From an uncultured Eubacteriales bacterium (GTDB taxonomy: Bacteria; Acidobacteriota; Aminicenantia; Aminicenantales; UBA8522): DNA of 36,384 nucleotides. The position numbers were made by a program, and so were the translations under genes. The stretch covers positions 1 to 36,384 of the forward strand of contig CAZKBY010000001.1 in the NCBI GenBank assembly GCA_964550915.1, written 5' to 3'. Positions 1,503 through 18,207 of this stretch are shown in pieces (the first letter of the stretch is position 1; every line of letters begins with the position of its first letter). The notes beneath the pieces were generated by a model, which saw only the letters and a program-made list of their open reading frames with translations, did no database searches and was not told where the DNA came from.

Positions 1503-1569
1503 CGCAATCCGTCCCCCTTTTACTAATCGAGATTACTCACGAAATGAAGCAAAAAAATCCTTTGGCTTC

Positions 1570-2139
1570 TTATAAAGTATCCGCCAGCCTGTCCTCCAAT
1601 TCCTGGGCCAGGAGATGGAGGAGCAGGAGGTGAACCTCCTGGATGCGGGGCGTGGAGGACGAGGGGACATCGAGAAGATAATCAGCCAAGGGACCAAGTT
1701 TTCCCCCGCCCTGGCCGGTCATGGCCACGGCGAGCAGGCCTTTTTGGCGGGCAGTTTTAAGGGCCTTGACAATGTTGGCTGACGTGCCACTTGTCGACAG
1801 CGCCAGCGCGATGTCCCCCTTGTTCCCCAGCGCCTCTACCTGCCGGCTGAAGACGTAATCATAGGCGGAATCGTTGGCAATCGACGTCAGAGTGGAGGTG
1901 TCTGTCGTGAGCGCGATCGCCCGGATGGGCTTCCGCACTCTCAGGAACTTATTCACTAACTCAGCGGCAAAATGTTGGGCTTCCGCTGCGCTCCCTCCGT
2001 TTCCGAAGACAAGGATCTTTCGGCCATTCCTCATCCCCGCCGTCACGGTCTCAACCATGCCGTTAAAAAGCTCCCTTTTCTTCTCGAAAAAGCTCTTGAT
2101 GATCCCATACAGCTCATCCTGAACCTCTCCGTAATCCAT
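1570..2139 (-). CDS. gmhA: D-sedoheptulose 7-phosphate isomerase (SIS domain, GmhA)
   Basis: 189 aa. FGNGGSAAEAQHFAAELV, LSTSGTSANIVKAL and IQEVHLLLLH align along the whole length with GmhA as I recall it. ATG is preceded by AAGGAG at 7 nt. Confidence 0.85.
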   Translation of the reverse strand: MDYGEVQDELYGIIKSFFEKKRELFNGMVETVTAGMRNGRKILVFGNGGSAAEAQHFAAELVNKFLRVRKPIRAIALTTDTSTLTSIANDSAYDYVFSRQVEALGNKGDIALALSTSGTSANIVKALKTARQKGLLAVAMTGQGGGKLGPLADYLLDVPSSSTPRIQEVHLLLLHLLAQELEDRLADTL

Positions 2140-2415
2140 TTGCTACTCCTTAGCTTTCACTTTTCTTCAGCTAAGCATTATATCCTATTTTAAGCCCAAG
2201 TTGTCCCGTTTGTTTTCTCTGCCTTCTGCTGTCTCCCGCCCAACTCTATGATTTCCCGTTTGAAATCAGGGACATGCGCCGATTTTATATTGCTCTTTCA
2301 TCGCGAAGTAAGCCCAACGATCTCTCCCGTCACCTTCAAATTATTTTCAAATCTTCTCCCGATTCCGAGATTTCTCGAATCTCATGGTCGCTTTGCTCAT
2401 CAACAACAGCCCTCG

Positions 2416-3114
2416 TCAATCCCCCAGCCCCGACTCGATAGTGCCCCTGACCCTTTCGATCAATATGGACATATTGCTTAGATTGTACCCCTCTACCGGA
2501 ACCGGGGCGTGAAAAAGGACATTCACGAGCCCCCGTTTCGTCGCTATTCGGCCGCGCGGCATGAGCTCAAAAGTTCCTCTGATGGTGATGGGCACGATCG
2601 GCGCCCCGCTTTCCAAGGCCAGAAAGAACCCTCCCCGTTTGAAGGCTTGAAGGCGGCCATCCCGGCTCCTCGTCCCCTCGGGGAAGATGAGGAAGGAGTA
2701 GCCCCGCTTGCGCATGAGCTGGATAGCTCTGGCAATGCTCCGCTTCCCTCCCCGCATCCTCTTGCGGTCAATCGGGACGAAGCCAACGTATCTCATCCCC
2801 ACGCCGATCACCGGAATCCGGAAGACCTCTTTCTTGAGAATAACCCGGATCGACCGAGGAATGAGCCAGAAAAGGAGCGGGCCGTCAAGGAAGCTCAGGT
2901 GGTTGGCCATGAAGATGTAGGCAGCTTTACGGTCCAGTTGCTCCCGGCCCTGGACTCTGACTTTGAGCCCTAACACCTTTGACCCGAGGCTCATGGCCCA
3001 CTTGGCAATCCCCAGGAGAGGGTCGCGAATCCCAAACGGCCAGAAGACCAGGAGCAGGACGAAAAGAAATATCGTCAGGATAATGTAAATCAGGATAAGA
3101 ATCGCTGTCCTCAT
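2416..3114 (-). CDS. plsC: 1-acyl-sn-glycerol-3-phosphate acyltransferase
   Basis: 232 aa with an N-terminal TM helix, the acyltransferase HX4D motif (NHLSFLD) and the FPEGTRS motif. Confidence 0.85.
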   Translation of the reverse strand: MRTAILILIYIILTIFLFVLLLVFWPFGIRDPLLGIAKWAMSLGSKVLGLKVRVQGREQLDRKAAYIFMANHLSFLDGPLLFWLIPRSIRVILKKEVFRIPVIGVGMRYVGFVPIDRKRMRGGKRSIARAIQLMRKRGYSFLIFPEGTRSRDGRLQAFKRGGFFLALESGAPIVPITIRGTFELMPRGRIATKRGLVNVLFHAPVPVEGYNLSNMSILIERVRGTIESGLGD

Positions 3115-3298
3115 GGTTAACTTGCTCGATTATATCATATAAGTAGGGATAAATTTCCACATTCGCATTGCGCATTGGGTTTCTTTGCCTAATTCAGCTA
3201 CCCGGCCAATTCCATAAAGAAACTCATGGCGCTTGCGTTCTGTCTTGCAACAGTCCTGTATTTTTTGTTTAATAAGGTCGATAAGAGTAAGAAAAAGA

Positions 3299-5260
3299 AT
3301 GCCGGGAAGAAGACAACAGCTTCCCCTTCCCGTTATCCTTGCTGCAGCCTTTGTTTTCCTGTTCTGCAGTCTGTTTTCTTTTTTTATATTCGAGCATATC
3401 CCGCATGTTAACGATGAAATCGGTTATCTCTTTCAGGCCAAAATATTCAGATCGGGCCGCCTCTACGCTCCATCACCTCCATGCCGAGAATTTTTTGATT
3501 TTCCCCATATTATCAACAATGGCCGATGGTATAGCATGTATCCTCCGGGCTACCCTTTTCTGCTGATGCTCGGTCTTGTCTTCGGAGTCCCCTGGCTTGT
3601 TAGTCCTCTTTTGGCCAGTTTATCCGTCATCATTTTCTATCTTTTAGGAAAGGAAATCTACAACCATAAAACTGGCCTCCTTGCTTCTCTCTTGGGGTCT
3701 GTTTCAATCTGGTTTCTGCTCATGTCATCAACGATGATGTCACACACAAGCAGCCTGTTTTTTAACACCCTGTTTCTTTTCTTCTTATTTCGCTCTCTCA
3801 AACAACCGACTTTTGCCAATGGACTGGCGGCAGCCACCTGTATTGGCATTGCCTTTCTCATCAGACCATATAATGCTCTTCTTTTTGCCGTCCCAGGAAT
3901 GATATATTACTCCGCCCTTATCTTCAAAAACCTAAAAGCAAGACTAAAAAACGCCCTGGCTCTCACTGTGACATCTTTGACCTTCGCTGGCCTCTTATTC
4001 CTTTACAATTTTCTTGCCAACGGGAACCCATTCTTGATGGGTTATATCATTCGCTACGGTAAAAGCTATTCTGTCATTTTCGGGCGGCCAGCGACAATGG
4101 ACTTCAATTACACCCCCCTCTTTGCGGTCACGCAGCTTGGAGATAATTTAAAAGCCTTAAATTCAGATTTATTTGGCTGGCCGCTGTCCTCTTTTCTAGC
4201 TCTTGTGCCGTTGCTTTGGCTCGCCAGGATAAGGCCCGAAGATAGAAAAAAAGACTTGCTTTTGGCGAGCACAATAGCCTTCTACCTGGTCGGCTTCTAC
4301 TTCTTCTGGGGCGCCTTTGTTTTTATCGGAGCCCGGATGTTTTTCGAATGTCTACCCCTCTTTTTTCTCTTAAGCGCGAGAGGACTATCAGAACTGCCCG
4401 GCTTTCTTGGCAAAGCCTTTAAAAGAGTCAAACCCAGAGCAGCCTCAAAGTTCATCACCGCCGCTGTGGTGATTTTTATTCTTTATGCCTTCCTTTATCG
4501 CTTTCCCCATCTTATCCGGCCGGCGCACGCCGGATGGCATTTCGACCGGTATGATTACAATTTTGCCGGGACAAATGATCATCTCAACAATACCTTACGA
4601 TCCCTGAACCTCAAGAATGCCGTCATCATCCTTAAATTTATCAATCGCCCTCCCAAGCCTTTTCCCGATGAAGGCGGATGGGGGGCTGGCTTTCTTTATA
4701 ACGCTCCGGACTTGAGGACAAATATCATTTATGTCCGGGACAGAATGAACGAGGAGGCAGAGCTTTTCTTCTGTTTTCCTGAATCGGATGTTTTTCTCTA
4801 TCTGGGGACGATCGAAAAAGGGATGCTTTTCCCCCTAAAGAAGGAGGCCCAAAATATTTTCCGAGGAGAGCCTATTTTATCAGCCCACAAGAGAAAAAAG
4901 TGCGTTGAATTAATCACCGACCCAAAGCTATTTTTCAAAATCTACTCAAAAGAATTTGGCGAATTCCTGGAATATCTTTTTAGGAATTATGATATCTGCC
5001 AAGTCAATGTAGACTGGCTCATTTCCCGCGGAAGGCGATCGATGGCCGATCGTGATTTCGAGCGGGCCGCTTTTTATTTTGAAGCCGCCCTCCAGGTGGA
5101 AAATGATCCGGAAACAAGAAGAACCATGCTCGATCTGCTCATCTCCTGTTACCAAAAATCAGGGCAACTGGATGAAGCCAAAAAAATCATTGATTTTATG
5201 GAGAAAATGAATTTTGATGAAAGAAAACTATATCTGGTATTGCCAGAGAGAGGCTTTTAG
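3299..5260 (+). CDS. Polytopic membrane protein, ArnT/PMT_2-like GT-C glycosyltransferase candidate with C-terminal TPR-like repeats
   Basis: Multiple hydrophobic helices. Acidic loop-1 motif HVNDEIGYLFQAKIF, followed by YPPGYPFLL. The C-terminal ~90 aa are TPR-like (FERAAFYFEAALQVENDPE..SGQLDEAKKI). The track start at 3233 is a TTG. The ATG at 3299 (MPGRRQQLPLPVIL) gives a basic N-terminus followed by a TM helix. Confidence 0.6.
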   Translation: MPGRRQQLPLPVILAAAFVFLFCSLFSFFIFEHIPHVNDEIGYLFQAKIFRSGRLYAPSPPCREFFDFPHIINNGRWYSMYPPGYPFLLMLGLVFGVPWLVSPLLASLSVIIFYLLGKEIYNHKTGLLASLLGSVSIWFLLMSSTMMSHTSSLFFNTLFLFFLFRSLKQPTFANGLAAATCIGIAFLIRPYNALLFAVPGMIYYSALIFKNLKARLKNALALTVTSLTFAGLLFLYNFLANGNPFLMGYIIRYGKSYSVIFGRPATMDFNYTPLFAVTQLGDNLKALNSDLFGWPLSSFLALVPLLWLARIRPEDRKKDLLLASTIAFYLVGFYFFWGAFVFIGARMFFECLPLFFLLSARGLSELPGFLGKAFKRVKPRAASKFITAAVVIFILYAFLYRFPHLIRPAHAGWHFDRYDYNFAGTNDHLNNTLRSLNLKNAVIILKFINRPPKPFPDEGGWGAGFLYNAPDLRTNIIYVRDRMNEEAELFFCFPESDVFLYLGTIEKGMLFPLKKEAQNIFRGEPILSAHKRKKCVELITDPKLFFKIYSKEFGEFLEYLFRNYDICQVNVDWLISRGRRSMADRDFERAAFYFEAALQVENDPETRRTMLDLLISCYQKSGQLDEAKKIIDFMEKMNFDERKLYLVLPERGF

Positions 5261-5301
5261 TTGCGCTTTGTAAGATTGATAGAAGAGACAGGGGATCGAG
5301 G

Positions 5302-6756
5302 ATGAAAAAGAATGAAGTATTTTTTCTTTCGCTATTAAGCTGCATTCTCGCAACTGTCCCATTCCTTGTCGTTAAATTTCCTCCTCTGACCGACCTCCCG
5401 CAGCATGTCGCTCAAGTCCGGCTTTTCGCCGACGCCCTCAGCAATCCCGCCACCCCATACCGAATTCAATGGATAACGCCTTACAGCCTTGTTTATGCGG
5501 TTCTCGGTGGAAGCTGGCTAATCTTTGGCCCGGAGAACGCCGGACGCCTGGGAATGCTGATTATCGTTATTTTTTGGGTTGTCATGCTCCATCTGCTGGC
5601 TCACAAGATGAAGCGGCCCCTCCTGGCCGCTTCTCTGGGCTCTGTCCTCTTTTTTGGTCACATCTTGTACTGGGGTTTCTACCAGTTCGCCTTCGGGTTG
5701 CCCTTTTTTATCGGATGGATTCTGCTCGCGAAAATTGAATTCCGAAGCCCCTGGAAAGAGGGCTTAGTGTTCTTCCTGGCTTCCATTGTTCTTTATACGG
5801 CCCATATTTTCTGGTTTCTTCTGGCCATCGGCTGGCTCGTCGCACGCCATATCATTTTTAAGGGCGACTTCAAAAGACTAATCCTCAGAATCGCCGTGGC
5901 CACACCTCTCGGTCTTTTAGGGATCGCCTGGTACCCTTCGCTGGCGGCCTATGGATTTAAATCTCAAACGATCTGGGCAACGACACCTTTCGAGAGGCTG
6001 TCGCCTGTCTGGCTCATCGATGCTTCCTTCGGTGGACTAAGAGGCCCCCTCGAGTATGTCTTTTTCGCTTTGCTTGTCGGTTGGGTTATCTTAGCATGTC
6101 TGCAGAACCGCCAAGCGCTTCTCTCAAAAACGGATAAAGAGCTTTTGCTTCTCAGTGCCCTTCTTTTCCTCCTGGCCCTTGTCCTGCCTGACAAGCAGAC
6201 GAATACGATCCGTTTCTGCCAGAGGTGGGTGCCTCCGGCATTCGCTTTTCTCCTGCTCAGCCTCCCCGAACTTCGGGTCAGGAAAAATATTCTAACAGCC
6301 GTTGTTTTGGCCATGGTTACGGTTTTTTTCGTTTTAACCTCCTTCAACTGGGTCGCCTTCGAATCCACTGAAATGTCGGGTCTTGAAGAATCTCTCGCAG
6401 TATTGCCCGAAGCTCCCCGTGTGCTCGGTTTAAGCTATGTCAAGGAGAGCACCATTGTTAAGGGACGGCCATTTATTCAAGTCTTCGCTTACAGCCAGGT
6501 CCTGCGAGGAGGGGAATTAAACTTTTCTTTCGCTGATTTCGGGCCGAGTCTCGTTGTTTACCGCCAGCGCCGCGTGCTTCCCTGGACCTCAGGGTTAGAA
6601 TGGTTTCCCGAAAAGGCCAGAAAAAGCGACTTTCAATTTTTCGACTATTCTCTGATTAATGCCGATGAAAAGCTTCACGGAGCCTTAGGCTCTGAGTCTG
6701 TGATTACACCAATAACTCGAGAAGGCCGCTGGCGGCTGTACAAAGTGGCTCATTGA
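5302..6756 (+). CDS. Polytopic membrane protein (about 10-11 helices) with a ~140-aa soluble C-terminal domain; function unknown
   Basis: 484-aa ORF with ATG preceded by GAGG. Hydrophobic helices run through about residue 340, followed by a soluble tail. I recognise no catalytic motif. Confidence 0.55.
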   Translation: MKKNEVFFLSLLSCILATVPFLVVKFPPLTDLPQHVAQVRLFADALSNPATPYRIQWITPYSLVYAVLGGSWLIFGPENAGRLGMLIIVIFWVVMLHLLAHKMKRPLLAASLGSVLFFGHILYWGFYQFAFGLPFFIGWILLAKIEFRSPWKEGLVFFLASIVLYTAHIFWFLLAIGWLVARHIIFKGDFKRLILRIAVATPLGLLGIAWYPSLAAYGFKSQTIWATTPFERLSPVWLIDASFGGLRGPLEYVFFALLVGWVILACLQNRQALLSKTDKELLLLSALLFLLALVLPDKQTNTIRFCQRWVPPAFAFLLLSLPELRVRKNILTAVVLAMVTVFFVLTSFNWVAFESTEMSGLEESLAVLPEAPRVLGLSYVKESTIVKGRPFIQVFAYSQVLRGGELNFSFADFGPSLVVYRQRRVLPWTSGLEWFPEKARKSDFQFFDYSLINADEKLHGALGSESVITPITREGRWRLYKVAH

Positions 6757-6804
6757 TTCTTGCTATGAATAATCCATATGAAACGATAGATATCAAGATC
6801 TAAA

Positions 6805-8772
6805 ATGCCTATTCTATTAATTATTCTTGGAGAAGGCGCGTGCTTGTATATTTTACTCATTCTGTTCCATTCGAGGAATAATTACCTCGCCCTTGACGTG
6901 GCCAAGGCGACGATCCTAAACCTTTTCCTTTCTATCTATGAGCTCATCATAATTGCAATCTTTCACCATCTTAGATGGCCGACTTTCTTGGCCTTCAAAG
7001 TCCTGATCATTGCGGCAATATTTTCATTCCTCAAAGCCAAGAACAAAATAAGGCTAAAGGACGAAATTGTGAAGCTAAACCTTAAACTGAATGATCATCT
7101 TAAGAAACCGCTGAACCTCTTTGTTCTATTCTTGCTTTTAATGATTTTTATCAACTCGCTCTGCAATTTCCCTCTCAAATGGGATTCTTATTCCTATCAC
7201 CTCCCGATGGCAGCGGCCTTCATTAAAACAGGCATTTTTAGTCACTATCAATATTATGGCGTGTCTATCGGATCCTACTATCCGCATGATATAGAACTTC
7301 TTTACAGCTTGATATTCTTGGCGAACGGGATCGAGATGTCTTCTCTTCCAAACTTTATTTCTCTCGTCCTCATTTTTCTCGGTTTATCCCTGATCATGCG
7401 AGATTTATTAAAAATGAAAGCTGATGTCTCAATCTCAGGGTCTCTATTATTTCTTTTCCTACCTCTTACATCCGGATATTTCTATGAGGCATATGTGGAT
7501 CTCTATTTCCTTTCTTTTGCCTTGTTTGCTATTTACTTTCTTATCAGGTTATTTACCACCTCAGATCTGCAATCCCTATTTTTTACCTTATTGCTGATGA
7601 ATCTTATGATGGGGACGAAATATCAAGGCCTGAGCTATGCCTTTTATACGATTCTTCTTCTCTGTTTTTTTATCCTCAAAAGCAAGCTGTGGCAGAGAAC
7701 CCACTGGCACAACTTCCTGATTCCGATATTCTTGCAGCCAGTTGGATGCTTTTTCTATCTGAGAAACTATCTACTGACAAAGAACCCGGTCTTCCCTTTG
7801 GATATTAATCTATTAAACCTGATTAAATTGCGAGGTTTCTATAAATATGGAATTTTATCCAAAGCGACATCGCTCTGGTCTACTTATAACCGGATAAAAC
7901 AAAATCTGGCGCCAATCCTTTTTTCCGAATTATCCGTAGGGTTATTCATATGTCTTTTTATTTGGATTTATTGTCTCGTTAACTATAAAACGATCAAACA
8001 AAAAATCATCAGAAATTCTTACTTCTATGTTCTCTTAGCGATTCTCGTCCTCTCATTTATCGAATATCTCATGATGCCATACACTGGCCTGAACACGGCG
8101 AGGGCGTTAAACTTTTCCTTAAGGCTTGGCCTGATATTTTTAGCGGCGTTTTTTCTGGTGTCTCTCTCAATCCTCTATTATTCTGAATTTAAGTATATCA
8201 TTCATCTTTGTATTACAGGTGCAATGCTTCTCCTTTTATCTGAACACATATCGACAATAAAAAACATTTTTCTTTCATTTTTCATTATAACTCTGTTTAT
8301 CATTTATAAAAGCTTAAGGAAAAACGGCACGGTTTTTGCCAGCTTTCTGATAATTTCTTGCCTGACGATAATTTTTCTCAGGCCAGAAATAAGAAAGTGG
8401 AAGAACTATTTTTATGACCTTAAAGGCCTCCCGAGAGCGAACCTGGCTTATGCGGGTCGAAACGTTCATTTTCAATTGTTTGATAAACACTTGAAGTACA
8501 AGGTCGTTTACATTAACGTTGATAGAAACCAGAATCTCAAATGGAACAAAGAAAAAAATCTGGATTATCACAAGAAAACCGGAGATTTTTTCGTTTGGCT
8601 AAGAAACATTCAGAAAGAAGATATTGATTATTTTGTCCTTTATGAGCTGAATGTGGACTATGTTGAAAAAAAATGGATTAACGAAAATCCGGATATCTTT
8701 CAAAAAGAGTTGCAGAATGTTTTCAAGATCAATAAGGAAGAGCTTCAAAAAGTCTTGCGGAAGGCGACCTAG
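6805..8772 (+). CDS. Polytopic membrane protein, GT-C-like glycosyltransferase candidate (AT-rich gene)
   Basis: 655 aa and very Phe/Ile/Leu/Tyr/Lys rich. Loop motif KWDSYSYHLPMAAAF follows the early helices. The soluble C-terminal ~110 aa are not TPR. No Shine-Dalgarno sequence upstream. Confidence 0.5.
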   Translation: MPILLIILGEGACLYILLILFHSRNNYLALDVAKATILNLFLSIYELIIIAIFHHLRWPTFLAFKVLIIAAIFSFLKAKNKIRLKDEIVKLNLKLNDHLKKPLNLFVLFLLLMIFINSLCNFPLKWDSYSYHLPMAAAFIKTGIFSHYQYYGVSIGSYYPHDIELLYSLIFLANGIEMSSLPNFISLVLIFLGLSLIMRDLLKMKADVSISGSLLFLFLPLTSGYFYEAYVDLYFLSFALFAIYFLIRLFTTSDLQSLFFTLLLMNLMMGTKYQGLSYAFYTILLLCFFILKSKLWQRTHWHNFLIPIFLQPVGCFFYLRNYLLTKNPVFPLDINLLNLIKLRGFYKYGILSKATSLWSTYNRIKQNLAPILFSELSVGLFICLFIWIYCLVNYKTIKQKIIRNSYFYVLLAILVLSFIEYLMMPYTGLNTARALNFSLRLGLIFLAAFFLVSLSILYYSEFKYIIHLCITGAMLLLLSEHISTIKNIFLSFFIITLFIIYKSLRKNGTVFASFLIISCLTIIFLRPEIRKWKNYFYDLKGLPRANLAYAGRNVHFQLFDKHLKYKVVYINVDRNQNLKWNKEKNLDYHKKTGDFFVWLRNIQKEDIDYFVLYELNVDYVEKKWINENPDIFQKELQNVFKINKEELQKVLRKAT

Positions 8773-8779
8773 AATAGAA

Positions 8780-10048
8780 TTACTTCGTACTTTTCTGTTT
8801 AATAAGTTCCTTGCACTTGTTTAATCCGGCTTCGGCCCGCTCTTTTTCCTGGTCGTTTTTGCTCAAATTCAAGGCCCTTTCATAGTAAGGGATAGCTTTT
8901 TGAACTTCTCCCTTAAAAAGATAGTGGCTGCCAAGGTATAGCTGAACCTCATAACTTGAGTGAAATTCCTTTTCGTGCTTAATAAAGTCGATATATTTCG
9001 GCATATATAAATTGTAGGCGACAGGGTGATTGAGAAATTGATCCCTATTATAAGACCCAATAACTATGCCAATGAATAAGATAACGATACCGCTAATCAT
9101 AGCTCGAGACATTTTGCCGAGCCCGCTTTCTTGTCTGTCTCGAGGGACGGGATGTTTTTTCTCAGCCTCAGATTTCATGGCGCTTATCTTGCGAGCCACA
9201 AAATAACATAGAACAGCAAGAATAGCTCCGGCCAGAACATCGACAACATAATGTTCACCCGTGTAAACGATCACAAAAAGCATCAATAACGCGTAGAGAT
9301 AAAACGCCCAAGCTTTCCAACGATAAATCCGCCAAAGGACTAAACCGCAGAGGACAGGAAAAGCCGCATGCAATGAGGGCATGGCAGCAACAGGATTTGT
9401 ATCAAATCCTGAACTGATATCCGGAATGACCATGTTATAGATAACCGCAATGAAGCGAAAAATGCGGGGGAACAGACCAAAGACGTTTGCTGCCATCCAG
9501 GGAGGGACTGTCGGAATGGCAAAATAGCCCAAAAGCCCCAGGAAAATGACCAGATAAAAAGAAATCTTGAAGAAACGAAAATGATTCGATCTGTAAAGCC
9601 AAATGATAAACCCGACCAGAAGAAAAGCAACAAAATGGCTTCCATGAGCTGCGGTCATGAATTTTTCAAACCAAGAAAAATCCGCCGCTGAACGAGGATG
9701 CAAGAGCCATTTTTGCAGATCGACGGGAGGAATGCCCCCGAAGAAAAGCTTTTCCAGTTTTATCACGTAACTGATATATACGGGTAGACCAAATTTACAG
9801 GTGGCGATATAAATGCTTCCTCTCAAGCTGTCAAAAAGATAAATAAACCCGATAAACACAAACCAGTCCTGAAGGAATATTTTTAGTTTCCCTAAAAGGG
9901 CAACGACCAAAAGGACAAAAAGAATCATCAAGATCTTGGGGACAAAAAAGAAGCGCTGGAAGAGAATTGTGATGAGCAGAAGAGACGCCAAGAAGAACAA
10001 AATCAGCAGCAAAGAGTAACTGGTCAGATTTATTTTCTTTTTTGCCAT
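8780..10048 (-). CDS. PAP2-superfamily (PAP2_3/AUR1-like) membrane phosphatase or phosphotransferase fused to a C-terminal TM helix and TPR
   Basis: MPSLHAAFPVL (PSxH) and GEHYVVDVLAGA (HxxxD) are PAP2 C2/C3-type motifs. The C-terminus reads YLGSHYLFKGEVQKAIPYYERALNL (TPR). The track start at 10081 is a TTG. The ATG at 10048 (MAKKKINLTSY) is preferred. Confidence 0.6.
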   Translation of the reverse strand: MAKKKINLTSYSLLLILFFLASLLLITILFQRFFFVPKILMILFVLLVVALLGKLKIFLQDWFVFIGFIYLFDSLRGSIYIATCKFGLPVYISYVIKLEKLFFGGIPPVDLQKWLLHPRSAADFSWFEKFMTAAHGSHFVAFLLVGFIIWLYRSNHFRFFKISFYLVIFLGLLGYFAIPTVPPWMAANVFGLFPRIFRFIAVIYNMVIPDISSGFDTNPVAAMPSLHAAFPVLCGLVLWRIYRWKAWAFYLYALLMLFVIVYTGEHYVVDVLAGAILAVLCYFVARKISAMKSEAEKKHPVPRDRQESGLGKMSRAMISGIVILFIGIVIGSYNRDQFLNHPVAYNLYMPKYIDFIKHEKEFHSSYEVQLYLGSHYLFKGEVQKAIPYYERALNLSKNDQEKERAEAGLNKCKELIKQKSTK

Positions 10049-10057
10049 AGAAATGCA

Positions 10058-10157
10058 ATTTAAGTTATTTTCAGCCGTCAAGTCAACTCGATTTCGAGCC
10101 TTTTTCCCAGGTCAACCTCTGAATTATCTTGACCTTGTGGGAAAAATGAATTAGACT
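10058..10157. promoter_or_regulatory. Divergent promoter region with four GTCAA/TTGAC half-sites and sigma-70-like boxes placed for near-leaderless transcripts
   Basis: Plus strand: TTGACC (10129-10134), N17, TAGACT (10152-10157), 11 nt before the ATG at 10169. Minus strand: TTGACT (rc of 10081-10086), N17, TTAAAT (rc of 10058-10063), 9 nt before the ATG at 10048. Inverted repeat AGGTCAA (10109-10115) / TTGACCT (10129-10135). Confidence 0.3.
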
Positions 10158-10168
10158 CTTAACTCTTC

Positions 10169-12223
10169 ATGCAAAAAAAAGACGGTGCTTTTATTCTCAT
10201 TCTCATCGTCATCCTTTTCGGCGTTTATTGGAAAACCTTTAGTTACGACCTAATCTGGGACGATGAGGTCTTTTTCAAATTCAACCTTCTGTTTATCGAG
10301 AACCATCCGCTGAGCTCGGCGTTCAAATTCGGCTACTTCAGCGAACAGCTTGGGGTCCATAATCAAGACCATTATTACCGCCCGCTCCTTACGCTTTCCT
10401 ATCTTATCGAGAACAGGTTCTGGGGAATCAGGAATGTGACGCTAAGATTGGCGAACCTTCTCATTTTCATTCTGTCGTTGACTTTTTTTTATTCATTTCT
10501 GAAGAAGCAGTATGAAAAGGCTTATTTTGCAGAAATAGCTGTGCTTCTTTTCGCGCTCTACCCTCTTAATATTGATAACATCGTATGGATTGTCGGAAGA
10601 GGAGATCTATTACTCCTCCTCTGGGCTGCCCTGACTTTCCTCTGCCTGGAACTCAACCTGGAAAAGAAAAGAGCCGCCTTCTTAGTCGGATCTTCGTTTT
10701 TTTATTTTCTCGGCATGCTTTCCAAAGAAACGTTTTTGCTCTTTTTTCCGATTCTCATCCTCTACGAATACATCAAGAACAAAAAATTGACGTGGCCTTA
10801 CCATCTGACCAATCTTGGCCTTACTGTTTTCTTCTTTATTCTCAAGAATATCCTCATCGAGGTCAAGAATCTTAGCATCGCTTACAACCCTTTGTCTCTT
10901 GAGAGCCTTAGGGCAGCGCTGGGGACAGTGGGTTTTTACTTCCGGACTATCGTTTTCCCTTTTTCCTATGATATGTTTCTGTCTGTTTCCAGAATGACGA
11001 GTTTGCTTTATATCGGTTTTGGTTTATTATGCGTGGCCTTATTTTTCTTTCTTTTCGTCCAGAGCAAAAAGGATCAAAAGTTCTTGTTGCCATCCGCAAT
11101 CTCAGCCCTCTTTCTGGCAGGGCATGTTCCTCTTATCTTCACAAACATCTATCCTTACCAGATTTATTCACGTTATATGATGGTCTCTGCTTTCGCGATG
11201 ATCTGGCTTCTTACGATCTTCCTCACTCGAATCGAAGAAAAAACAAGATTTGTTCTTGTCTTCATCATCCTCCTGGCCTTTATTCCTTCCCTTGTGTTCA
11301 ATGCAAATTTCTATAAGGATAAAGCAAGTTTCTGGCAGAGAGCTTTGAGAGCTTCTCCCCAGGATCCTTATGTCCTTTTCCAGGCGGCGAAGACCTTTTA
11401 CGAGAATAAAGATTATTTGTCGGCAGAACTCGCTCTCAATAGTTCTCTATCCTTAACCATGAAGAGAGAAACAGCCATCATGATAAGCCAGCTCTATGCG
11501 GATATTGAATTAGCCCGAGCAGATTACGATCACTTTTCCCGCTGGCTCGCCAGCATTGAAGAATTCGAAAAAGACCCGAATATAAGGCTGGCACCTTTTA
11601 TCAGATACCAGATCAACTCCAAAAAAGCCAAAGCTCATATTTCAAAAGGTGACGTAGACAAGGCTGAAAGATTGTTAAAAGAAAATATCGCAGGCTTCGC
11701 CTCCGTAAAAGAAGCTTATTCAGAACTATATGAGCTTTATGTCGGCACTGAACAGTGGGAAAAAGCGCTCCTCTTTGAAAAAACCATGAAAGAAATATTT
11801 CCTAACTACTACGCCCACCTTGATACGGGGAAAATGCAAAAAGAATTTGGCACGCTTTCATTTGAGAAAAAAATGGATTTTTACATCGAAAATCGGGATT
11901 ATTCCGCCGCCATCAACCTTATCAAAACGTTACCGAATCTTAGCCTTGATCAACAGTTTCTTCTTTCCAAACTTTATTATTATCAGGGAAACGTGGTGGA
12001 GGGAGAAAAGATAATCCGCATGATCCTCGAAACTAATCCTAGTAGCTGGGAAATTTTAAATAAGGTTGGCTACTTCTATTTAAGCAATCTCATCCGTGTC
12101 CAAGAGGCCCTGCCCTATTTTGAGAAATCTCTCAGTCTTAATCCCTCTCAGCCCGAAATTATTGACGTTTCGAATAGACTCAAAAACGATTATCTGGCCA
12201 AGCTAAAACCTGTCTGGAAATAG
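10169..12223 (+). CDS. TMTC/DUF1736-like GT-C membrane glycosyltransferase candidate with a long C-terminal TPR domain
   Basis: 684 aa. N-terminal LIWDDEVFF and YYRPLLTLSYLIENRFWG motifs, about 10 helices, then ~300 aa of TPR-like repeats (YENKDYLSAELALNSSL, YYYQGNVVEGEKI, ALPYFEKSLSLNP). Confidence 0.65.
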   Translation: MQKKDGAFILILIVILFGVYWKTFSYDLIWDDEVFFKFNLLFIENHPLSSAFKFGYFSEQLGVHNQDHYYRPLLTLSYLIENRFWGIRNVTLRLANLLIFILSLTFFYSFLKKQYEKAYFAEIAVLLFALYPLNIDNIVWIVGRGDLLLLLWAALTFLCLELNLEKKRAAFLVGSSFFYFLGMLSKETFLLFFPILILYEYIKNKKLTWPYHLTNLGLTVFFFILKNILIEVKNLSIAYNPLSLESLRAALGTVGFYFRTIVFPFSYDMFLSVSRMTSLLYIGFGLLCVALFFFLFVQSKKDQKFLLPSAISALFLAGHVPLIFTNIYPYQIYSRYMMVSAFAMIWLLTIFLTRIEEKTRFVLVFIILLAFIPSLVFNANFYKDKASFWQRALRASPQDPYVLFQAAKTFYENKDYLSAELALNSSLSLTMKRETAIMISQLYADIELARADYDHFSRWLASIEEFEKDPNIRLAPFIRYQINSKKAKAHISKGDVDKAERLLKENIAGFASVKEAYSELYELYVGTEQWEKALLFEKTMKEIFPNYYAHLDTGKMQKEFGTLSFEKKMDFYIENRDYSAAINLIKTLPNLSLDQQFLLSKLYYYQGNVVEGEKIIRMILETNPSSWEILNKVGYFYLSNLIRVQEALPYFEKSLSLNPSQPEIIDVSNRLKNDYLAKLKPVWK

Positions 12224-12231
12224 GGCCAGTT

Positions 12232-13947
12232 TCACTCAGGACTGGGCCTCAAGCTTTTCAGCTCCTCGAGTAACATCTGGGTCTGTTTAGTGCGAAAAAT
12301 TAGGTAGTCTCGAGCATAGAGTTCAGCGGCCTTTTTGTAGTCCTTGACGATGAGATAAAACTTCGCCGCTCGAGTTAAAACAAAATGGTCTCGGGGGAAA
12401 GCCTGAAGCTTTTCCAGAATAATCTTCTCGCCTTCAGATATCTTCCCGGAAAAGGCAAGATAGTAAGCATAATTAAAAGTTGCATGCAAAGATAAAGTTC
12501 TATCGTTTGCCCTCAACTCCTGAAAATAATATTCAGCTCTGGGAAAATCCTTCCTAAACGTAAAATAGATCGCCAGCTCCTCATGGGTTCGGGTTTTCCA
12601 CATATGATAAAGGGGATGGTCCTTTCGGCTAAGGAGGCTTTCGAATAAACCCAAAGCTTTTTTTTCGTCTAGCGGAAGAGTGTGAATTCCGATATTAAAT
12701 TTTGCGATGAGGTCTTCGCGTTCAATTTTCTTGATACTCAGCCAGAAATCCGTCTCGTCCTGGCCATAGAGTTTAGCTTTTGGATAGATCTCGACTGTAT
12801 AGACGATGGCAATAACGACCAGGAGAAAAATGCAGATTGCTTGGGGCTTTATTTTTTGGGTCGTTATTTGCACAATCCATAGAATAAACACTGCTGAAGG
12901 AAAATACAAAAATCTCCAAGCGATAAGAGAAATTGTCGCCGCAGAAAAGCTAACAACCAGCACGGGCAGGAGCGAAAAATAGAAAGCCAGGGAAAAGAAA
13001 AAGGGCCAAATTTTATTTATCTTTTTGAGAACAAGAAAGAAAGATATTCCCAGAAACACAATTAGTGCAAAACCAAAAAACAGGAAGAGACGATTGTCAA
13101 AAACAGAAACTGGGTCGATTGTCATGCTCAGATTAAACGGGAAAATGATTTTCCATGTGTAGAAACCAAATGTCGAAAAAAGGTCGATAAGCGGTCTTCC
13201 CGAATAAATAAATAGAGAGGAGCCAAGGGCGAATTTTCTCATCATTAGCCAGACAGCAAGAACAAAACCAAAGAAGACAAGAGGTAAAGCCATGTCTTTG
13301 GCCTTGAATCGCTTAATGGAGAGGCCAAAAAGGTATAATACCGGCAAAAAGACCGCGCTCTCTTTGGCCAAAAGAGAGGCAAGAAAAAACAGGCAAGAAA
13401 CGGCAAGGTGAAGAGATTTTTTTTGTGCGACAAAACGGAGAAAAAACAAAATTGAGAGCGCAGCCAGAGCAGAGGAGAGCAGGTCTGTCCGGCCGGAAAT
13501 CCAGGCTACATTCTCGAAGTGCAGCGGAAATACAGAAAAAAGCAAGGCACTCATAAAAGAGGCCATCGCGCTAAACCTGAGGCTAACGAGAAGGCTGAAG
13601 ATAAGAACAGAATTGCCAAAATGAATAAGGATATTCGTTAGGTGAAAACCTGCCGGATTTAAATCCCATATTTTAAAATCAAGCCAGTAGCTTAGAGAAG
13701 TCAGAGGCCTATAAAATTGAAGGCTTGGATCAGCCCTCCGATTGGATTTGTCGATCCCAGAATAGCCTCCGAAGGGGCTGAATAGAAAATCCTTGAGAAA
13801 GCGAGGACTTAGGAGATTCTGATTTTCGCTGATAAAATACTTGTCATCCCAGAGAAAACTTCCCCTCATTGAAGGCAAGAAAACGGCCGCGTTCACCGCC
13901 AGCAGAATCAGGATGAAAATAAGCCTAATTTTTCTCGGCTCGTTCAT
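12232..13947 (-). CDS. TMTC/DUF1736-like GT-C membrane glycosyltransferase candidate with C-terminal TPR; paralog of 10169-12223
   Basis: FLWDDKYFISENQNL and FYRPLTSLSYWLDFKIWDLNPAGFHLTNILIH motifs, many helices, and a C-terminal TPR (YYLAFSGKISEGEKI, YLIVKDYKKAAELY). The track start at 13995 is a TTG. The ATG at 13947 (MNEPRKIRLIF) is preferred. Same strand as the pilin genes and directly downstream of them. Confidence 0.65.
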   Translation of the reverse strand: MNEPRKIRLIFILILLAVNAAVFLPSMRGSFLWDDKYFISENQNLLSPRFLKDFLFSPFGGYSGIDKSNRRADPSLQFYRPLTSLSYWLDFKIWDLNPAGFHLTNILIHFGNSVLIFSLLVSLRFSAMASFMSALLFSVFPLHFENVAWISGRTDLLSSALAALSILFFLRFVAQKKSLHLAVSCLFFLASLLAKESAVFLPVLYLFGLSIKRFKAKDMALPLVFFGFVLAVWLMMRKFALGSSLFIYSGRPLIDLFSTFGFYTWKIIFPFNLSMTIDPVSVFDNRLFLFFGFALIVFLGISFFLVLKKINKIWPFFFSLAFYFSLLPVLVVSFSAATISLIAWRFLYFPSAVFILWIVQITTQKIKPQAICIFLLVVIAIVYTVEIYPKAKLYGQDETDFWLSIKKIEREDLIAKFNIGIHTLPLDEKKALGLFESLLSRKDHPLYHMWKTRTHEELAIYFTFRKDFPRAEYYFQELRANDRTLSLHATFNYAYYLAFSGKISEGEKIILEKLQAFPRDHFVLTRAAKFYLIVKDYKKAAELYARDYLIFRTKQTQMLLEELKSLRPSPE

Positions 13948-14061: not shown

Positions 14062-14604
14062 TTAATTTGTTATTTGAGAAGTCTTAGGGGCATGAATCCA
14101 GGAACCATTCCAGATGATAAGGTCCTGGTCAAAGCTTGTTAGGCTGGTTAGCGGAAAATAGGCTGAATGCGGATCCATAGGATCGAACGTAAAGGCTGTT
14201 TGCTGCCTGTCTCTGCCGTAGGAAATGACCAGAAAATCATCTTCTCCAGTCGCCGTGACGCCCGCGATTCCGGCACCCGAAACCGCCTCAGCGCCACAAT
14301 ATATATAAAACGCACTTCCCCACTGGTCATTCAAAGGAAGAACTTTGAGGTACAACGAGCCCATCATCAAGCTAAAATTTGAATTCGCCACTAACGGTCC
14401 ATTTTGTTCAGGTGCAAAGCCGTGATCCATTATATAGTCTATTATCCCTTTAGCAATGGAATTCATGTCTTGCATTGTCCCTTTCTGTTTCGTTTTTTGG
14501 ATAGAGCTTATAAACTCTGGAAGAAGGAGGGCAGCAAGAATTCCAATAATGACTAAAACCAGAAGAATCTCAATCAGGCTGAATCCTCTTGTCTGCTTTG
14601 CCAT
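14062..14604 (-). CDS. Type IV pilin / GspG-like pseudopilin, second paralog
   Basis: Prepilin leader and cleavage/methylation motif MAKQTRG|FSLIEILLVLVIIGILAALLLP, followed by a GspG-like block (KQKGTMQDMNSIAKGIIDYIMDHG). 180 aa. The C-terminal blocks are shared with 14726-15268. No Shine-Dalgarno sequence. Confidence 0.8.
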   Translation of the reverse strand: MAKQTRGFSLIEILLVLVIIGILAALLLPEFISSIQKTKQKGTMQDMNSIAKGIIDYIMDHGFAPEQNGPLVANSNFSLMMGSLYLKVLPLNDQWGSAFYIYCGAEAVSGAGIAGVTATGEDDFLVISYGRDRQQTAFTFDPMDPHSAYFPLTSLTSFDQDLIIWNGSWIHAPKTSQITN

Positions 14605-14624
14605 GGAGATCTTTATCGTCTTTG

Positions 14625-14659
14625 AAAAAAAGGGGCGACAAGCAGTCCCTTATCGCCCC
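14625..14659 (-). terminator. Rho-independent terminator between the two pilin genes
   Basis: On the minus strand: GGGGCGA (rc of 14653-14659), a 14-nt loop, TCGCCCC (rc of 14632-14638), then TTTTTTT (rc of 14625-14631). It lies 66 nt after the first pilin stop and 20 nt before the second pilin ATG. Confidence 0.65.
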
Positions 14660-14725
14660 CATGTGAGGTCTACTATCTGATTTTCGCGCTCAACAACCTT
14701 CTTTACTCACCTGAGATCACTCGAC

Positions 14726-15268
14726 TTAACTTCCTAGCTGAGCCGACTTGGGAGCGTGAATCCAGTTGCCATTCCAGCTTACTAGGTCCTGGTTGAAGCT
14801 CGTCATCGCCGTGACCGTGAAATACGCTGAGGTCGGGTTCAGGGGGTCAAAGTTGATGGCAGTAAAACTTTTGTCTCGACCATAAGAAGCAACTAGAAAA
14901 TCGTCAACTCCGCAATTGGTAACGCCTGTATAAACGCTATCACAATCTGTTCCAGAATATACCTGGAACGCAGTGCCCCATTGGTCATTCTGAGGTAGGA
15001 CTTTGAGATAGAATCCGCTCAAGTCCGTGTAGAACTGGGTTCCGCCTACCAGTGGACCGTCCGGAGCACTTGTCGGTGCCGTTCCGTTGTCAGTGACGTA
15101 ATCCATGATCGCCGTGGAGATAGAGTTGATGTCCTTCATGGTGCCCTTCTGTTTGGCTTTCTGGATGGCGGAAAGGGCGTTGGGGATGAGAAGCGCAGCC
15201 AGGATGCCGATGATGGCGACAACGATGAGCAGCTCGATCAGCGTAAAACCTCTAACCTTTTTTAACAT
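14726..15268 (-). CDS. pilA: Type IV pilin (probable major pilin), GspG-like N-terminal domain
   Basis: MLKKVRG|FTLIELLIVVAIIGILAALLIP prepilin motif. Perfect AGGAGG 6 nt upstream of the ATG. A sigma-54 promoter lies upstream and pilR/pilS are adjacent. Two Cys (DCDSVYTGVTNC). 180 aa. Confidence 0.85.
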   Translation of the reverse strand: MLKKVRGFTLIELLIVVAIIGILAALLIPNALSAIQKAKQKGTMKDINSISTAIMDYVTDNGTAPTSAPDGPLVGGTQFYTDLSGFYLKVLPQNDQWGTAFQVYSGTDCDSVYTGVTNCGVDDFLVASYGRDKSFTAINFDPLNPTSAYFTVTAMTSFNQDLVSWNGNWIHAPKSAQLGS

Positions 15269-15345
15269 TAAAACCTCCTAAATTCCTTGGTGACTTTTCG
15301 TCAACAAGGTAAAATTTGCCTAAATGCTTAGGCATTTAATGTTTA

Positions 15346-15360
15346 GCAATATCAGTGCCA
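15346..15360 (-). promoter_or_regulatory. Sigma-54 (-24/-12) promoter of the pilin gene
   Basis: The minus strand reads TGGCAC-TGATA-TTGC, an exact match to TGGCAC-N5-TTGC. It lies ~78 nt upstream of the pilin ATG and downstream of a sigma-54-dependent activator gene. Confidence 0.8.
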
Positions 15361-16886: not shown

Positions 16887-16905
16887 ATCTCATCTCGCAA
16901 ATACG

Positions 16906-18207
16906 TCAGCTCACCGCACCAGCCCTGGAGTCAGAAGCCGTCTCTCTCACCCGCGGTCCGCGCACCGGGAGCGTCAGGATGATCTCTGTTCCTCTCATAA
17001 GCTCAGAGTGGACTTCGATTCTTCCGTTATAGTCATCGACGATCCGCCTGACAATGACCAGTCCCAGGCCCCGGCCGTTCTCAAAACGGGTGAAAAAGGG
17101 CTCAAAGAGATGCTTCTTTTCCTCTTCCCTGAGGCCGCGGCCTGTATCAGCAAACTTGATTTTGATCTCTTTTTTGTTTTCCCGGACAAAATCGACCGTC
17201 AGAGTCCCGCCTTCAGGCATCGCTTTGAGCGCATTCTTGGCCAGGTTCCAGAAAACCTGCTTGAGCTGATTGGCGCTCCCGTAATAGGTCAACTTTGAAG
17301 ATGAGAAATTGCCGGCCAGGCGGTAGTTCCCGTTGAGTTCGCCGCTCGCCCTGAGCAGAGCCAGCGTCTCCTCCAGGGCTTCAGAAAGCCTCACCTCTGA
17401 AAAAACCCTCTTGCCCGGGGAGGCCAAATCCAGAAATTGCTCGATCGACTGACTCACACGGACGGACTCCTTGAGGACGATCTCCATGAGGTTTTTCTCG
17501 TCCTCATGAAGAGGCATCTCGTTCTTGAGGAACTGGACTGCTCCCGAGATCGCAGCCAGAGGGTTGCGGATCTCATGAGCCAACTGGGCCGCGATGCGGC
17601 CGGCCGTGGCCAGCCGTTCTTTGACCTCTAACTCCTTTTGGGCCAGGAGAAGCTCCTCGCGCGCCCGCCGGAGGCTGCTCGTCAGGCGATCCGCCAGGAC
17701 GGCGATCAGGATGAACAGGCTCCAGGCCACGAGAATGGTAAAAAGGACAAGGCCCAGCGAGCGTTCCCGATACTGATCAAGGCTGAAATACGGGATCAGC
17801 CCGAAATAAAGACCGTCCACCAGAACCCCGAAAAGGACCGCGGACAGGCCGGCCGTGATATAGGTCGCCCGGCTCGAAAGAACGATGCTCGCGGCGATGA
17901 TTGAGAAAACATAGAGCAAATAAAGGCCGCCGGTTAATCCCCCGGATATGTAGACCAAGGCCGTGATCAGAAGGAGGTCAAAAAAGGTCTGAAGGTAAGC
18001 CTGGAAGGAATAGCTCTTCGACCACCAGTAAAGACACAAATGAACCAATGACAGAAGATAGGTCAGAAGCATAAGATAATAAAAAGGAATAAGCGGGATG
18101 AAATCCGTCGTCGAGGACTGGATGATGATGACGGCGACGAGGATCGAGGTGACCGCGATCAAGCGGATGAGGATGAACCAGAGGATGTGCTTCTTCTGTG
18201 TTTTCAT
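16906..18207 (-). CDS. pilS: Membrane sensor histidine kinase (PilS-like)
   Basis: About six N-terminal TM helices and a coiled-coil linker. H-box AAQLAHEIRNPLAAI, N box FWNLAKNALKA, G boxes DTGRGL and GRGLGL. Its position between pilC and pilR supports the call. Confidence 0.75.
   Translation of the reverse strand: MKTQKKHILWFILIRLIAVTSILVAVIIIQSSTTDFIPLIPFYYLMLLTYLLSLVHLCLYWWSKSYSFQAYLQTFFDLLLITALVYISGGLTGGLYLLYVFSIIAASIVLSSRATYITAGLSAVLFGVLVDGLYFGLIPYFSLDQYRERSLGLVLFTILVAWSLFILIAVLADRLTSSLRRAREELLLAQKELEVKERLATAGRIAAQLAHEIRNPLAAISGAVQFLKNEMPLHEDEKNLMEIVLKESVRVSQSIEQFLDLASPGKRVFSEVRLSEALEETLALLRASGELNGNYRLAGNFSSSKLTYYGSANQLKQVFWNLAKNALKAMPEGGTLTVDFVRENKKEIKIKFADTGRGLREEEKKHLFEPFFTRFENGRGLGLVIVRRIVDDYNGRIEVHSELMRGTEIILTLPVRGPRVRETASDSRAGAVS

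Follow-up and report, generated by a model that had tools for sequence, protein, structure and literature searches.

In the present study, we describe an island of six genes for polytopic membrane proteins, designated G1 to G6, which adjoins type IV pilin genes in an uncultured Aminicenantes bacterium (contig CAZKBY010000001.1, positions 1 to 36,384; this whole stretch of 36,384 nucleotides is called the window below). Reading from the left, the island comprises G1 (3299-5260, + strand), a PMT_2-type glycosyltransferase of the GT-C class with a short C-terminal tail resembling tetratricopeptide or pentatricopeptide repeats (TPR/PPR); G2 (5302-6756, +), predicted to adopt a GT-C fold and ending in a soluble alpha/beta domain of about 130 amino acids (aa); G3 (6805-8772, +), a rare PMT-clan candidate for a GT-C enzyme without a TPR tail; G4 (8780-10048, -), a PAP2_3 lipid-phosphate phosphatase/phosphotransferase with an extra transmembrane (TM) helix and a predicted periplasmic TPR tail; G5 (10169-12223, +), a putative TMTC-like GT-C whose 11 TM helices precede a TPR domain of about 300 aa; and G6 (12232-13947, -), a putative GT-C and paralog of G5 in the position that TfpW occupies in Pseudomonas aeruginosa. 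The six open reading frames (ORFs) spanning 3299-13947 are all intact, without internal stops, and encode proteins of 653, 484, 655, 422, 684 and 571 aa with 8-13 hydrophobic segments each in a Kyte-Doolittle scan, in agreement with a sequence-only reading of this DNA that had picked out the same six ORFs as rich in TM helices. That reading had also treated them as one array of paralogs, a view that cannot be kept, since the genes lie on both strands (+ + + - + -) and an all-against-all BLAST of the six proteins detected paralogy only between G5 and G6. The gaps between the island genes are at most 185 nt, and therefore no small genes are hidden inside the island.

The island is followed on the right by pilA2 (14062-14604, -), a second type IV pilin gene recognised by its N_methyl domain and a GspG-like match; by pilA1 (14726-15268, -), the probable major pilin gene, with N_methyl and T2SSG matches; and by pilR, pilS, pilC, pilT and pilB (15471-22322, -), assigned through the Pfam families Sigma54_activat, 6TM_PilS, T2SSF, T2SSE and MshEN. 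G6 and pilA2 share a strand, and the distance of 114 nt previously given between them holds for the ATG at 13947; the longest G6 ORF starts at a TTG at 13995. On the left lie a plsC-like acyltransferase gene (2416-3114, -) and a gmhA-like SIS gene (1570-2139, -), both identified by Pfam. The GC content is 36-49% over the island, pilins included, versus about 55% in the flanks, with a minimum of 36-37% over G3. No insertion-sequence-type or transposon-like repeats were found around the island or G3, and the only repeat detected was the pilA1/pilA2 duplication.

G5 and G6 as candidate TMTC-like glycosyltransferases

G5 and G6 share 27% identity over 407 aa (BLAST, E=1.4e-18). The structure model of G5 (pLDDT 90, pTM 0.86) divides into a TM domain (residues 1-382), the helix pattern of which fits 11 TM helices, and a TPR domain (385-676). 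The TPR signal is strong in G5 (Pfam TPR_19, E=1.8e-10; consensus-TPR structures, E=2.5e-9) and weak in G6 (BLAST to the TPR region of G5, E=0.002; TPR proteins in the PDB, E~0.01). When G5-type and G6-type TM domains from several genomes were aligned together with a distant relative from outside the clade (locus L007), D31-D32, Y70-R71-P72, G143-R144, K186-E187 and R335 were invariant and D146 was nearly so, and the invariant residues hold across two paralog groups at 18-27% identity. In G6 the DD pair stands at residues 38-39, within FLWDDKYF. Seven of the 11 TM domains of the family matched PMT_2 at E<=0.01 (best E=1.7e-9), and several G5/G6-type orthologs carry a precomputed match to PF13231. 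TMTC_DUF1736 was matched by neither G5 nor G6 at E<=0.1 in Pfam, and the G5/G6-type relative in L007 matched it at E=1.2e-9. A profile of the G5/G6 TM domains found no match among PDB sequences.

These residues correspond to motifs described for the human TMTC1-4 enzymes, with which G5 also shares 11 TM helices and TPRs on the extracytoplasmic side (lumenal in TMTC, predicted in G5). The motifs M1 (DD), M2 (YRP), M3 (RxD), M4 (KE) and the arginine of M7 are all present in G5 and G6, and the residue numbers in G5 are nearly the same as those of human TMTC3, namely D31/D32, Y70-R71-P72, R143/D145, K188/E189 and R376, the TMTC M4 motif being KE[T/Q] (PMC7801869 Table 4). Unlike in TMTC, M5 (DW) and M6 (PxxP) were not recognised in G5 and G6, the donor would be a bacterial polyprenyl phosphate instead of dolichyl phosphate, and the acceptor would not be a cadherin. 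On the strength of these motifs, G5 and G6 are predicted to be TMTC-like GT-C enzymes, oriented such that the DD loop and the TPR tail would face the periplasm.

TfpW is the pilin D-arabinofuranosyl transferase of Pseudomonas aeruginosa group IV strains (Pa5196, PA7). The N-terminus of this GT-C enzyme is cytoplasmic and is followed by 11 TM helices and, at the C-terminal end, a TPR domain in the periplasm; DDx in periplasmic loop 1 is essential, and loop 4 contains YX6PFX7P. The tfpW gene lies immediately downstream of pilA, and the enzyme modifies Ser/Thr in the alpha-beta loop of the pilin, namely at Thr64 and Thr66 (bioRxiv 10.1101/2020.04.19.049825). Judged from this published description of TfpW, G6 resembles TfpW in its position directly after pilA, which is conserved in about 20 species, its strand, its 11-TM plus TPR architecture, its DDx and its YX6PFX7P. 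The last motif occurs in full form at residues 263-279 of G6 (YTWKIIFPFNLSMTIDP); it arises in 0.5% of composition-matched shuffles, and its final proline is present in only 2 of 4 aligned G6 orthologs. In contrast to TfpW, the host is an uncultured Aminicenantes bacterium and not a gammaproteobacterium, and where tfpW is accompanied by tfpX, the present island has two TPR-tailed paralogs, three more GT-C genes and a PAP2_3-TPR enzyme. No genes of the D-arabinofuranose pathway (DprE1/E2, polyprenyl-phosphoribose synthase) were found by Pfam among the larger ORFs of the window, and therefore the sugar probably differs from that of TfpW.

The TPR tails also raise the question of whether these proteins might be non-enzymatic factors of pilus assembly or stability, comparable to PilF and PilW, with the GT-C-like domains serving as mere anchors. 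Several orthologs are labelled 'Tfp pilus assembly protein PilF' by JGI, and the TPR region of G5 weakly matches the PilW model and a fimbrial biogenesis TPR structure (2vq2). However, the PilF label stems only from the generic TPR signal, and the invariance of DD, YRP, RxD, KE and R across two paralog groups would not be expected of an anchor. We consider this explanation very unlikely, and G5 and G6 are treated below as putative glycosyltransferases.

Further GT-C candidates in the island

Three more genes of the island are candidates for GT-C enzymes. First, G1 scores 31.5 bits against PMT_2, above the Pfam gathering score of 26.1 bits, and weakly matches the LA_3751/LA_3752 putative glycosyltransferase family of NCBIfam. 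Its D39-E40, within PHVNDE, is invariant across 22 homologs, four of them at only 26-30% identity. The C-terminal tail of G1 reaches 23 bits with TPR_19, below the 25-bit Pfam cutoff, and matches designed PPR (E=1.7e-8) and TPR (E=6e-5) proteins in the PDB. Orthologs of G1 with 50-59% identity likewise adjoin plsC in many relatives.

Second, G2 belongs to a well-conserved family (58% mean column identity over 54 sequences) that has neither a Pfam nor an NCBIfam match. A fold search of the PDB with its AlphaFold model (pLDDT 92, pTM 0.91) returned GT-C enzymes for all of the best nine matches, with moderate TM-scores; ArnT (5f15) came first (E=1.5e-4, TMq 0.47), together with DPY19, AftB, EmbA/B, Pmt1/2, ALG3 and Pmt4. 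The first-loop D31 of G2 is invariant, within FPPxTDLPQH. The family profile found nothing meaningful among PDB sequences, and an hhalign comparison of the G2 family with the G5 family was not significant (probability 0.9%). Since G2 thus has no sequence-profile similarity to GT-C enzymes, its assignment is drawn from the fold, and on this modelled structure we count G2 as a fifth GT-C candidate. The sequence-only reading had left G2 unclassified and had counted four GT-C candidates, a number that has to be raised to five; the four acidic first-loop motifs on which that count was based are all present and are conserved within their families.

Third, G3 scores 22 bits against PMT_2, which is below the cutoff, and among its 30 homologs 12 match PMT_2 and six match PMT. 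In hhalign, G3 matches the G5/G6 profile with a probability of 90% (E=1.8e-6), and D127, which is invariant in the 30 homologs, aligns with D31. A G3 profile gave no meaningful match among PDB sequences. G3 is rare, with only eight cluster representatives at E<=1e-30 among 1.8 billion, and it was absent from all related loci examined and was seen only on the contig of the window. G3 is a strain-specific low-GC insert (GC 0.36-0.37), and from its profile similarities it appears to be a weak member of the PMT clan.

Profile hidden Markov model and fold searches therefore give GT-C architecture, and not transporters or O-antigen polymerases, consistent with what the sequence-only reading had proposed. 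An O-antigen ligase or Wzy_C-type oligosaccharyltransferase was considered and rejected, because none of the six proteins matched Wzy_C in Pfam and WaaL ranked 32nd in the fold search with G2 (probability 0.06). These results suggest that the locus is very likely a GT-C-based periplasmic glycosylation island, and a GT-C module implies lipid-linked donors and action in the periplasm.

G4, a PAP2_3 enzyme with a TPR tail

The single PAP2-type enzyme noted earlier is G4, which scores 101 bits against PAP2_3 (cutoff 27, E=7e-29) and also matches PAP2 and PAP2_C in Pfam. All 37 homologs examined keep PSLH (224-227) and HYxxD (266-270) unchanged; inspection by eye did not reveal the canonical Kx6RP motif. 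G4 shares these S-x-H and H-x3-D catalytic motifs with the phosphotransferases of the PAP2_3/sphingomyelin-synthase-like group, such as the fungal inositol phosphorylceramide (IPC) synthase Aur1, and with the PAP2 enzymes LpxT and Rv3807c. The chemistry of PAP2 enzymes can include the transfer of phospho-groups to acceptors in the envelope, as by LpxT, or the removal of phosphate from sugar phosphates linked to polyprenyl, as by Rv3807c. The catalytic core of G4 is followed by a Lys/Arg-rich loop (286-315), a TM helix (316-332) and a tail of about 90 residues with one TPR under the Pfam cutoffs. Because the loop would be cytoplasmic by the positive-inside rule and is followed by a TM helix, the tail is predicted to be periplasmic, on the same side as the active site. 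TPR tails had been attributed to four of the island proteins, and this is sound for G5, moderately so for G1, and less so for G4, with its single sub-cutoff repeat, and for G6, where the signal is weak.

G4 aligns almost full-length with the model of the Bacteroides phosphoinositol-dihydroceramide synthase, at 31 bits versus a cutoff of 480, and it is therefore not an ortholog of that enzyme. Homologs of G4 adjoin pilins and GT-C genes in three loci outside the clade (L007, L084 and L085). In L085, the pilin-adjacent island with the G4 homolog also contains a CDP-alcohol transferase resembling phosphatidylinositol-phosphate synthase, which matches an archaetidylinositol-phosphate synthase model at E=2e-43; the two genes of this pair are at 6406-7062 and 10001-11263. 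This pairing hints at inositol-phosphate lipid chemistry.

The pilins and their expression signals

PilA1 and PilA2 are 57% identical. The only sizeable repeat of the island, a 62-nt direct repeat with 77% identity (14294-14355 and 14952-15013), corresponds to this pilA1/pilA2 duplication. PilA1 ends in Ser, as had been reported, and PilA2 in Asn. The TAPTSAP patch at 15062-15082 was also correctly located; it belongs to the alpha-beta loop of PilA1 (DNGTAPTSAPDG), where it contributes T56, T59 and S60 of the mature protein. The glycans of Thermus PilA4 and PilA5 are carried on the alpha-beta loop (PMC7203116). GTAP is conserved in PilA1 orthologs, and the residues after it vary. GTAP is also present wherever G5 is present, a coincidence that we discounted as evidence because the loci appear to be a single related group.

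Upstream of pilA1, TGGCACTGATATTGCT (15345-15360, -) is a perfect match to the sigma-54 promoter consensus and the sole site in the window with zero mismatches, which fits the adjacent pilR/pilS pair. Directly 3' of pilA1, a hairpin resembling an intrinsic terminator by its consensus (14631-14660, -) has a 12-bp stem with seven G-C pairs, followed by a T run. From the two signals together, PilA1 is probably a highly expressed, PilR-dependent major pilin. pilA2 and G6, situated behind the predicted terminator, would need read-through or a promoter of their own.

Signs of pilin decay were seen in relatives. In L001, the pilA1 ortholog (14489-15102) is split into ORFs of 69 aa and 84 aa, and L002 contains an uncalled pilin copy without the N-terminal helix (5969-6424).

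Linkage to the pil locus and variability of the island

Linkage to pil genes was counted in the contexts of G5 orthologs, in a scan of GTDB species representatives and in metagenome contigs. Close relatives with names are nearly all labelled Aminicenantes, Aminicenantales or Acidobacteriota, and in about 20 species-level Aminicenantes/Acidobacteriota genomes the orthologs of G6 and G5 lie between pilA and plsC. All six contexts of G5 orthologs with 47-66% identity are pil loci. Among the GTDB species loci, 14 were informative and had a G5 ortholog at 39% identity or more; in all 14, pilA lies within a few kb and is followed by pilR, pilS, pilC, pilT and pilB, and G5 orthologs at the same threshold in additional metagenome contigs are likewise found in the pil locus. 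In other words, the core of G5 and G6 is linked to pilins in every ortholog-bearing relative examined, in line with the association from which the sequence-only reading had started. In four loci (L026, L027, L034 and L036), G6 is the sole gene of the window found between pilA and plsC, right after pilA, and G6 is therefore taken as the oldest and most constant member.

In many relatives, plsC and gmhA form the left border of the island. In three loci (L006, L115 and L117), however, the pair G5-G2 is followed by two more genes and then by pilB, pilT, pilC, pilS, pilR and pilA, and neither plsC nor gmhA is nearby. This layout indicates that the glycosyltransferases travel with pil and not with the lipid genes, and argues against simple inertia at the plsC border. 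The gmhA gene, which does lie at 1570-2139 as reported, was therefore rejected as a member of the module; together with plsC, it marks a conserved flank of the site of insertion, and both genes are absent where the pair G5-G2 moved beside pilB.

Pilin linkage was also observed outside the clade. L007 contains PilD, minor pilins, a TPR protein, G2, a PAP2_3-TPR protein, a TMTC_DUF1736-TPR protein and pilA; L084, from a deltaproteobacterial metagenome-assembled genome, contains a pilin, a TMEM260_N/PMT_2 protein, PAP2_3 and GT87; and L085, L040 and L156 are further pilin-linked cases.

Dynamic changes in gene content were found among the islands of relatives. G1-G2-G4-G5-G6 without G3 occurs in L012, L019, L106 and L107, and also in L014, with extra methyltransferase genes between G2 and G4. 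L003, L004, L005 and L098 combine G1 with GT2, a B12 radical-SAM enzyme, a methyltransferase and another PMT_2 gene, and in L001 and L013 the space between plsC and G5 is empty. The variable slot of L014 and L097 contains sulfatase-family, rhamnosyl-O-methyltransferase/CmcI or FkbM methyltransferase genes. The locus is thus no fixed six-gene system, as had first been supposed, and is instead a mosaic with a core of G6 and then G5 plus variable cassettes. By analogy, it looks like a strain-variable surface-glycan island with a logic similar to that of the P. aeruginosa pilin accessory-gene region.

Two observations were made in the variable slots. In L005, an uncalled fragment between the G1 ortholog and GT2 (4769-5080) is 53% identical to residues 1-104 of G2; it is probably a G2 pseudogene remnant and, as such, would be direct evidence of cassette turnover. 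In L097, a 529-aa protein (8367-9956) has a weak sulfatase-family domain in residues 256-466 only, a layout that recalls the membrane-anchored phospho-form transferases EptA, LtaS and PptA. With its low GC content and the probable pseudogene remnant in L005, the island appears to be horizontally exchangeable.

Herein, we propose that the island is a pilA-adjacent, exchangeable set of TfpW-like and TMTC-like GT-C enzymes with the pilin as acceptor. Taken as a whole, this proposal is in our judgement slightly more likely than not; the choice of the pilin as acceptor is suggested by synteny. Several results weigh against it. In the first place, the evidence from linkage has exceptions. G6-like paralogs with 46-51% identity occur without a pilin within 10 kb in L029, L032, L038 and L044, G2 homologs with 42-48% identity and TMTC-like proteins with less than 35% identity from other phyla mostly have no pilin within 10 kb, and synteny inside one clade can partly reflect shared ancestry. 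The enzymatic assignment of the core is also affected, as G5 scores below the PMT_2 cutoff (20.9 bits at full length and 22.3 bits for the TM domain alone), G6 has no PMT_2 match in Pfam, and a fold search with full-length G5 returned mostly TPR proteins, with PglB (6gxc) at rank 28 (TMq 0.33). Moreover, Pfam and NCBIfam scans of the window found no polyprenyl-phosphate-sugar synthase, flippase or nucleotide-sugar pathway in the island. Finally, the TAPTSAP patch is not conserved beyond GTAP, and the loop has an ordinary Ser/Thr content.

Some of these exceptions would fit an island that modifies a non-protein component of the envelope, for example a phosphoinositol- or lipid-anchored glycolipid or lipoglycan resembling phosphatidylinositol mannosides or lipoarabinomannan, lipopolysaccharide or exopolysaccharide; the pilA site would then be just a place where genes for surface variation recombine frequently. 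Lipids and glycans are the acceptors of GT-C enzymes such as PimE, Emb and ArnT, which provide a precedent for acceptors of this kind. The flanks of the island, a plsC-type acyltransferase and a gmhA-like heptose-pathway isomerase, point in the same direction, as do the pairing in L085 of the G4 homolog with the phosphatidylinositol-phosphate-synthase-like enzyme and the weak, near full-length alignment of G4 with the phosphoinositol-dihydroceramide synthase model. Many distant homologs lack pilin linkage, and L008 has G2 with GT2 and radical-SAM genes and no pilin. However, the pair G5-G2 stays with pilB in the three loci where plsC and gmhA are absent, G6 occupies the exact slot of TfpW and has the TfpW motifs, and the phosphatidylinositol-phosphate synthase was seen in one locus only. 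In addition, TPR tails, predicted to be periplasmic, on four enzymes suggest protein recognition, as in TMTC and TfpW. An envelope glycolipid or glycan as the acceptor is therefore regarded as unlikely.

A pilin acceptor has also to be weighed against general periplasmic protein O-glycosylation, comparable to that by actinobacterial Pmt and eukaryotic PMT/TMTC, in which many substrates are modified and the pilin is at most one target. PMT and TMTC homologs are multi-substrate enzymes (PMC7801869), paralogs with differing TPR tails could serve separate substrate classes, and G6-like paralogs exist elsewhere in the same genomes. Such a general system would give no obvious reason for the hypervariability and low GC of the island or for its tie to pilA in about 20 species, and its content differs among close relatives in the way that strain-specific surface antigens do. 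We rate this explanation slightly lower still than that of a glycolipid acceptor, and pilin glycosylation is retained as the favoured interpretation.

Comparison with other glycosylation systems

Three-component systems rely on a GT2 enzyme that loads the sugar on polyprenyl phosphate, a flippase that carries it across the membrane and a GT-C enzyme for the final transfer in the periplasm (PMC11127046). In the sister islands L003, L005 and L098, a GT2 gene whose best matches are AglJ, dolichyl-phosphate hexose transferase, PgfS, PpgS and ArnC stands beside GT-C genes, an arrangement like that of GtrA/GtrB/GtrX and ArnC/ArnE-F/ArnT. Unlike these systems, the island in the window has neither a GT2 nor a GtrA-like flippase, and the Gtr and Arn systems lack TPR tails and modify O-antigen or lipid A. 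TfpO/PilO, PglL, PglS and TfpM are also polytopic membrane enzymes, often encoded beside pilA, which glycosylate pilins in the periplasm, and TfpO targets a C-terminal Ser, the residue with which PilA1 also ends. In contrast to the present proteins, they are Wzy_C enzymes that transfer preassembled oligosaccharides linked to undecaprenyl diphosphate.

The sequence-only reading knew of no described system with this composition at a type IV pilus locus. For the core, this statement is too strong, because TfpW already combines GT-C architecture with a TPR domain in the periplasm and has its gene directly behind pilA; as TfpW shares the core architecture, the core is not categorically new. The sequence-only reading had named TfpW as a GT-C enzyme beside pilA and had made no mention of its TPR tail. 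Literature searches on TPR-tailed GT-C enzymes with pilins, on PAP2 with pilins and on pili of Aminicenantes surfaced only the TfpW work. In the literature searched, we found nothing on paired TMTC-like paralogs, an expansion to five GT-C genes, the G2 family or the occurrence of all of these in Aminicenantes. Likewise, the literature searched gave no match for a pilin-linked PAP2_3 protein that carries an additional TM helix and, on the periplasmic side, a TPR tail, nor for the recurrence of a PAP2_3-TPR fusion beside pilins in several lineages.

Proposed pathway and implications

Under the favoured interpretation, pilin glycosylation might proceed as follows. First, enzymes encoded outside the window would join sugars to polyprenyl phosphate in the cytoplasm and then flip the product to the periplasmic side; in the sister islands, the co-located AglJ/ArnC-like GT2 probably performs the loading. 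Second, the TPR domains of G6 and G5 would dock a periplasmic protein substrate, and the sugar would be transferred to Ser or Thr. The likeliest substrate would be the membrane-anchored pilin before assembly, with T56, T59 and S60 in the alpha-beta loop of PilA1 as possible sites. Third, G1, G2 and G3 might extend or diversify the glycan or serve other acceptors. Fourth, G4, acting at the same face of the membrane, might add a phospho-substituent from a lipid donor, a reaction for which the PAP2 chemistry of sphingomyelin synthase, IPC synthase and LpxT could be a precedent; alternatively, G4 might dephosphorylate a polyprenyl-diphosphate or sugar-phosphate intermediate. In this scheme, the type of donor, the way in which the paralogs share the work and the reaction catalysed by G4 are all inferred.

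If the pilin is the substrate, glycosylation of the TfpW type (GT-C plus TPR) would not be restricted to a few gammaproteobacteria, and would represent an old and widespread strategy that, in a major uncultured lineage of sediments, has expanded into islands of several enzymes that vary between strains. Bacterial TMTC homologs are numerous and, to our knowledge, have no known substrate; the present locus supplies a concrete substrate hypothesis for them. Two parts of the island deserve attention in their own right, namely the GT-C-fold family of G2, which is captured by neither Pfam nor NCBIfam, and the fusion of PAP2_3 to a TPR tail in G4. Surface decoration of such variability suggests that the pili in these communities are under pressure from phages or predators.

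We also put forward, as a speculative extension and with considerable doubt, that Aminicenantes, and sporadically Desulfobacterota-like lineages, possess a combinatorial toolkit for pilin decoration, in which TMTC-type enzymes recognise the pilin through their TPRs, G2 extends the glycan, and the PAP2_3-TPR enzyme transfers a lipid phospho-headgroup to the pilin or its glycan. If this were true, pili would receive phospho-form modifications from a new class of enzymes that is not related to PptA of Neisseria, and bacterial TMTC homologs would have their first natural protein substrate.

Other features of the window

Beyond pilB, the window contains mutL plus housekeeping genes. A 746-aa ORF (33642-35882, +) matches SIS_2 and GKRP_SIS_N only below threshold, at about 25 bits. 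Two ORFs without a family match, one over the end of mutL (22533-23168, -) and one antisense to tatC (31656-32639, -), are probably spurious. At the left end, an aminotransferase-fusion ORF (24-1502, +) has its N-terminus cut by the window edge. Its residues 1-98 represent the C-terminal end of a class I/II aminotransferase, and the remaining residues, about 390, contain a P-loop-like motif, GPPGTRKTE, and have no Pfam match; counterparts of 689-780 aa stand at the equivalent place in L001, L004 and L005. In L001, a set of genes for a transaldolase-like protein, a HAD/PNK3P phosphatase, a GHMP kinase, a nucleotidyltransferase and an epimerase (577-4989) lies upstream of flotillin and aminotransferase genes. 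This set resembles the pathway for nucleotide-activated heptose and may be related to the flanking gmhA-like gene.

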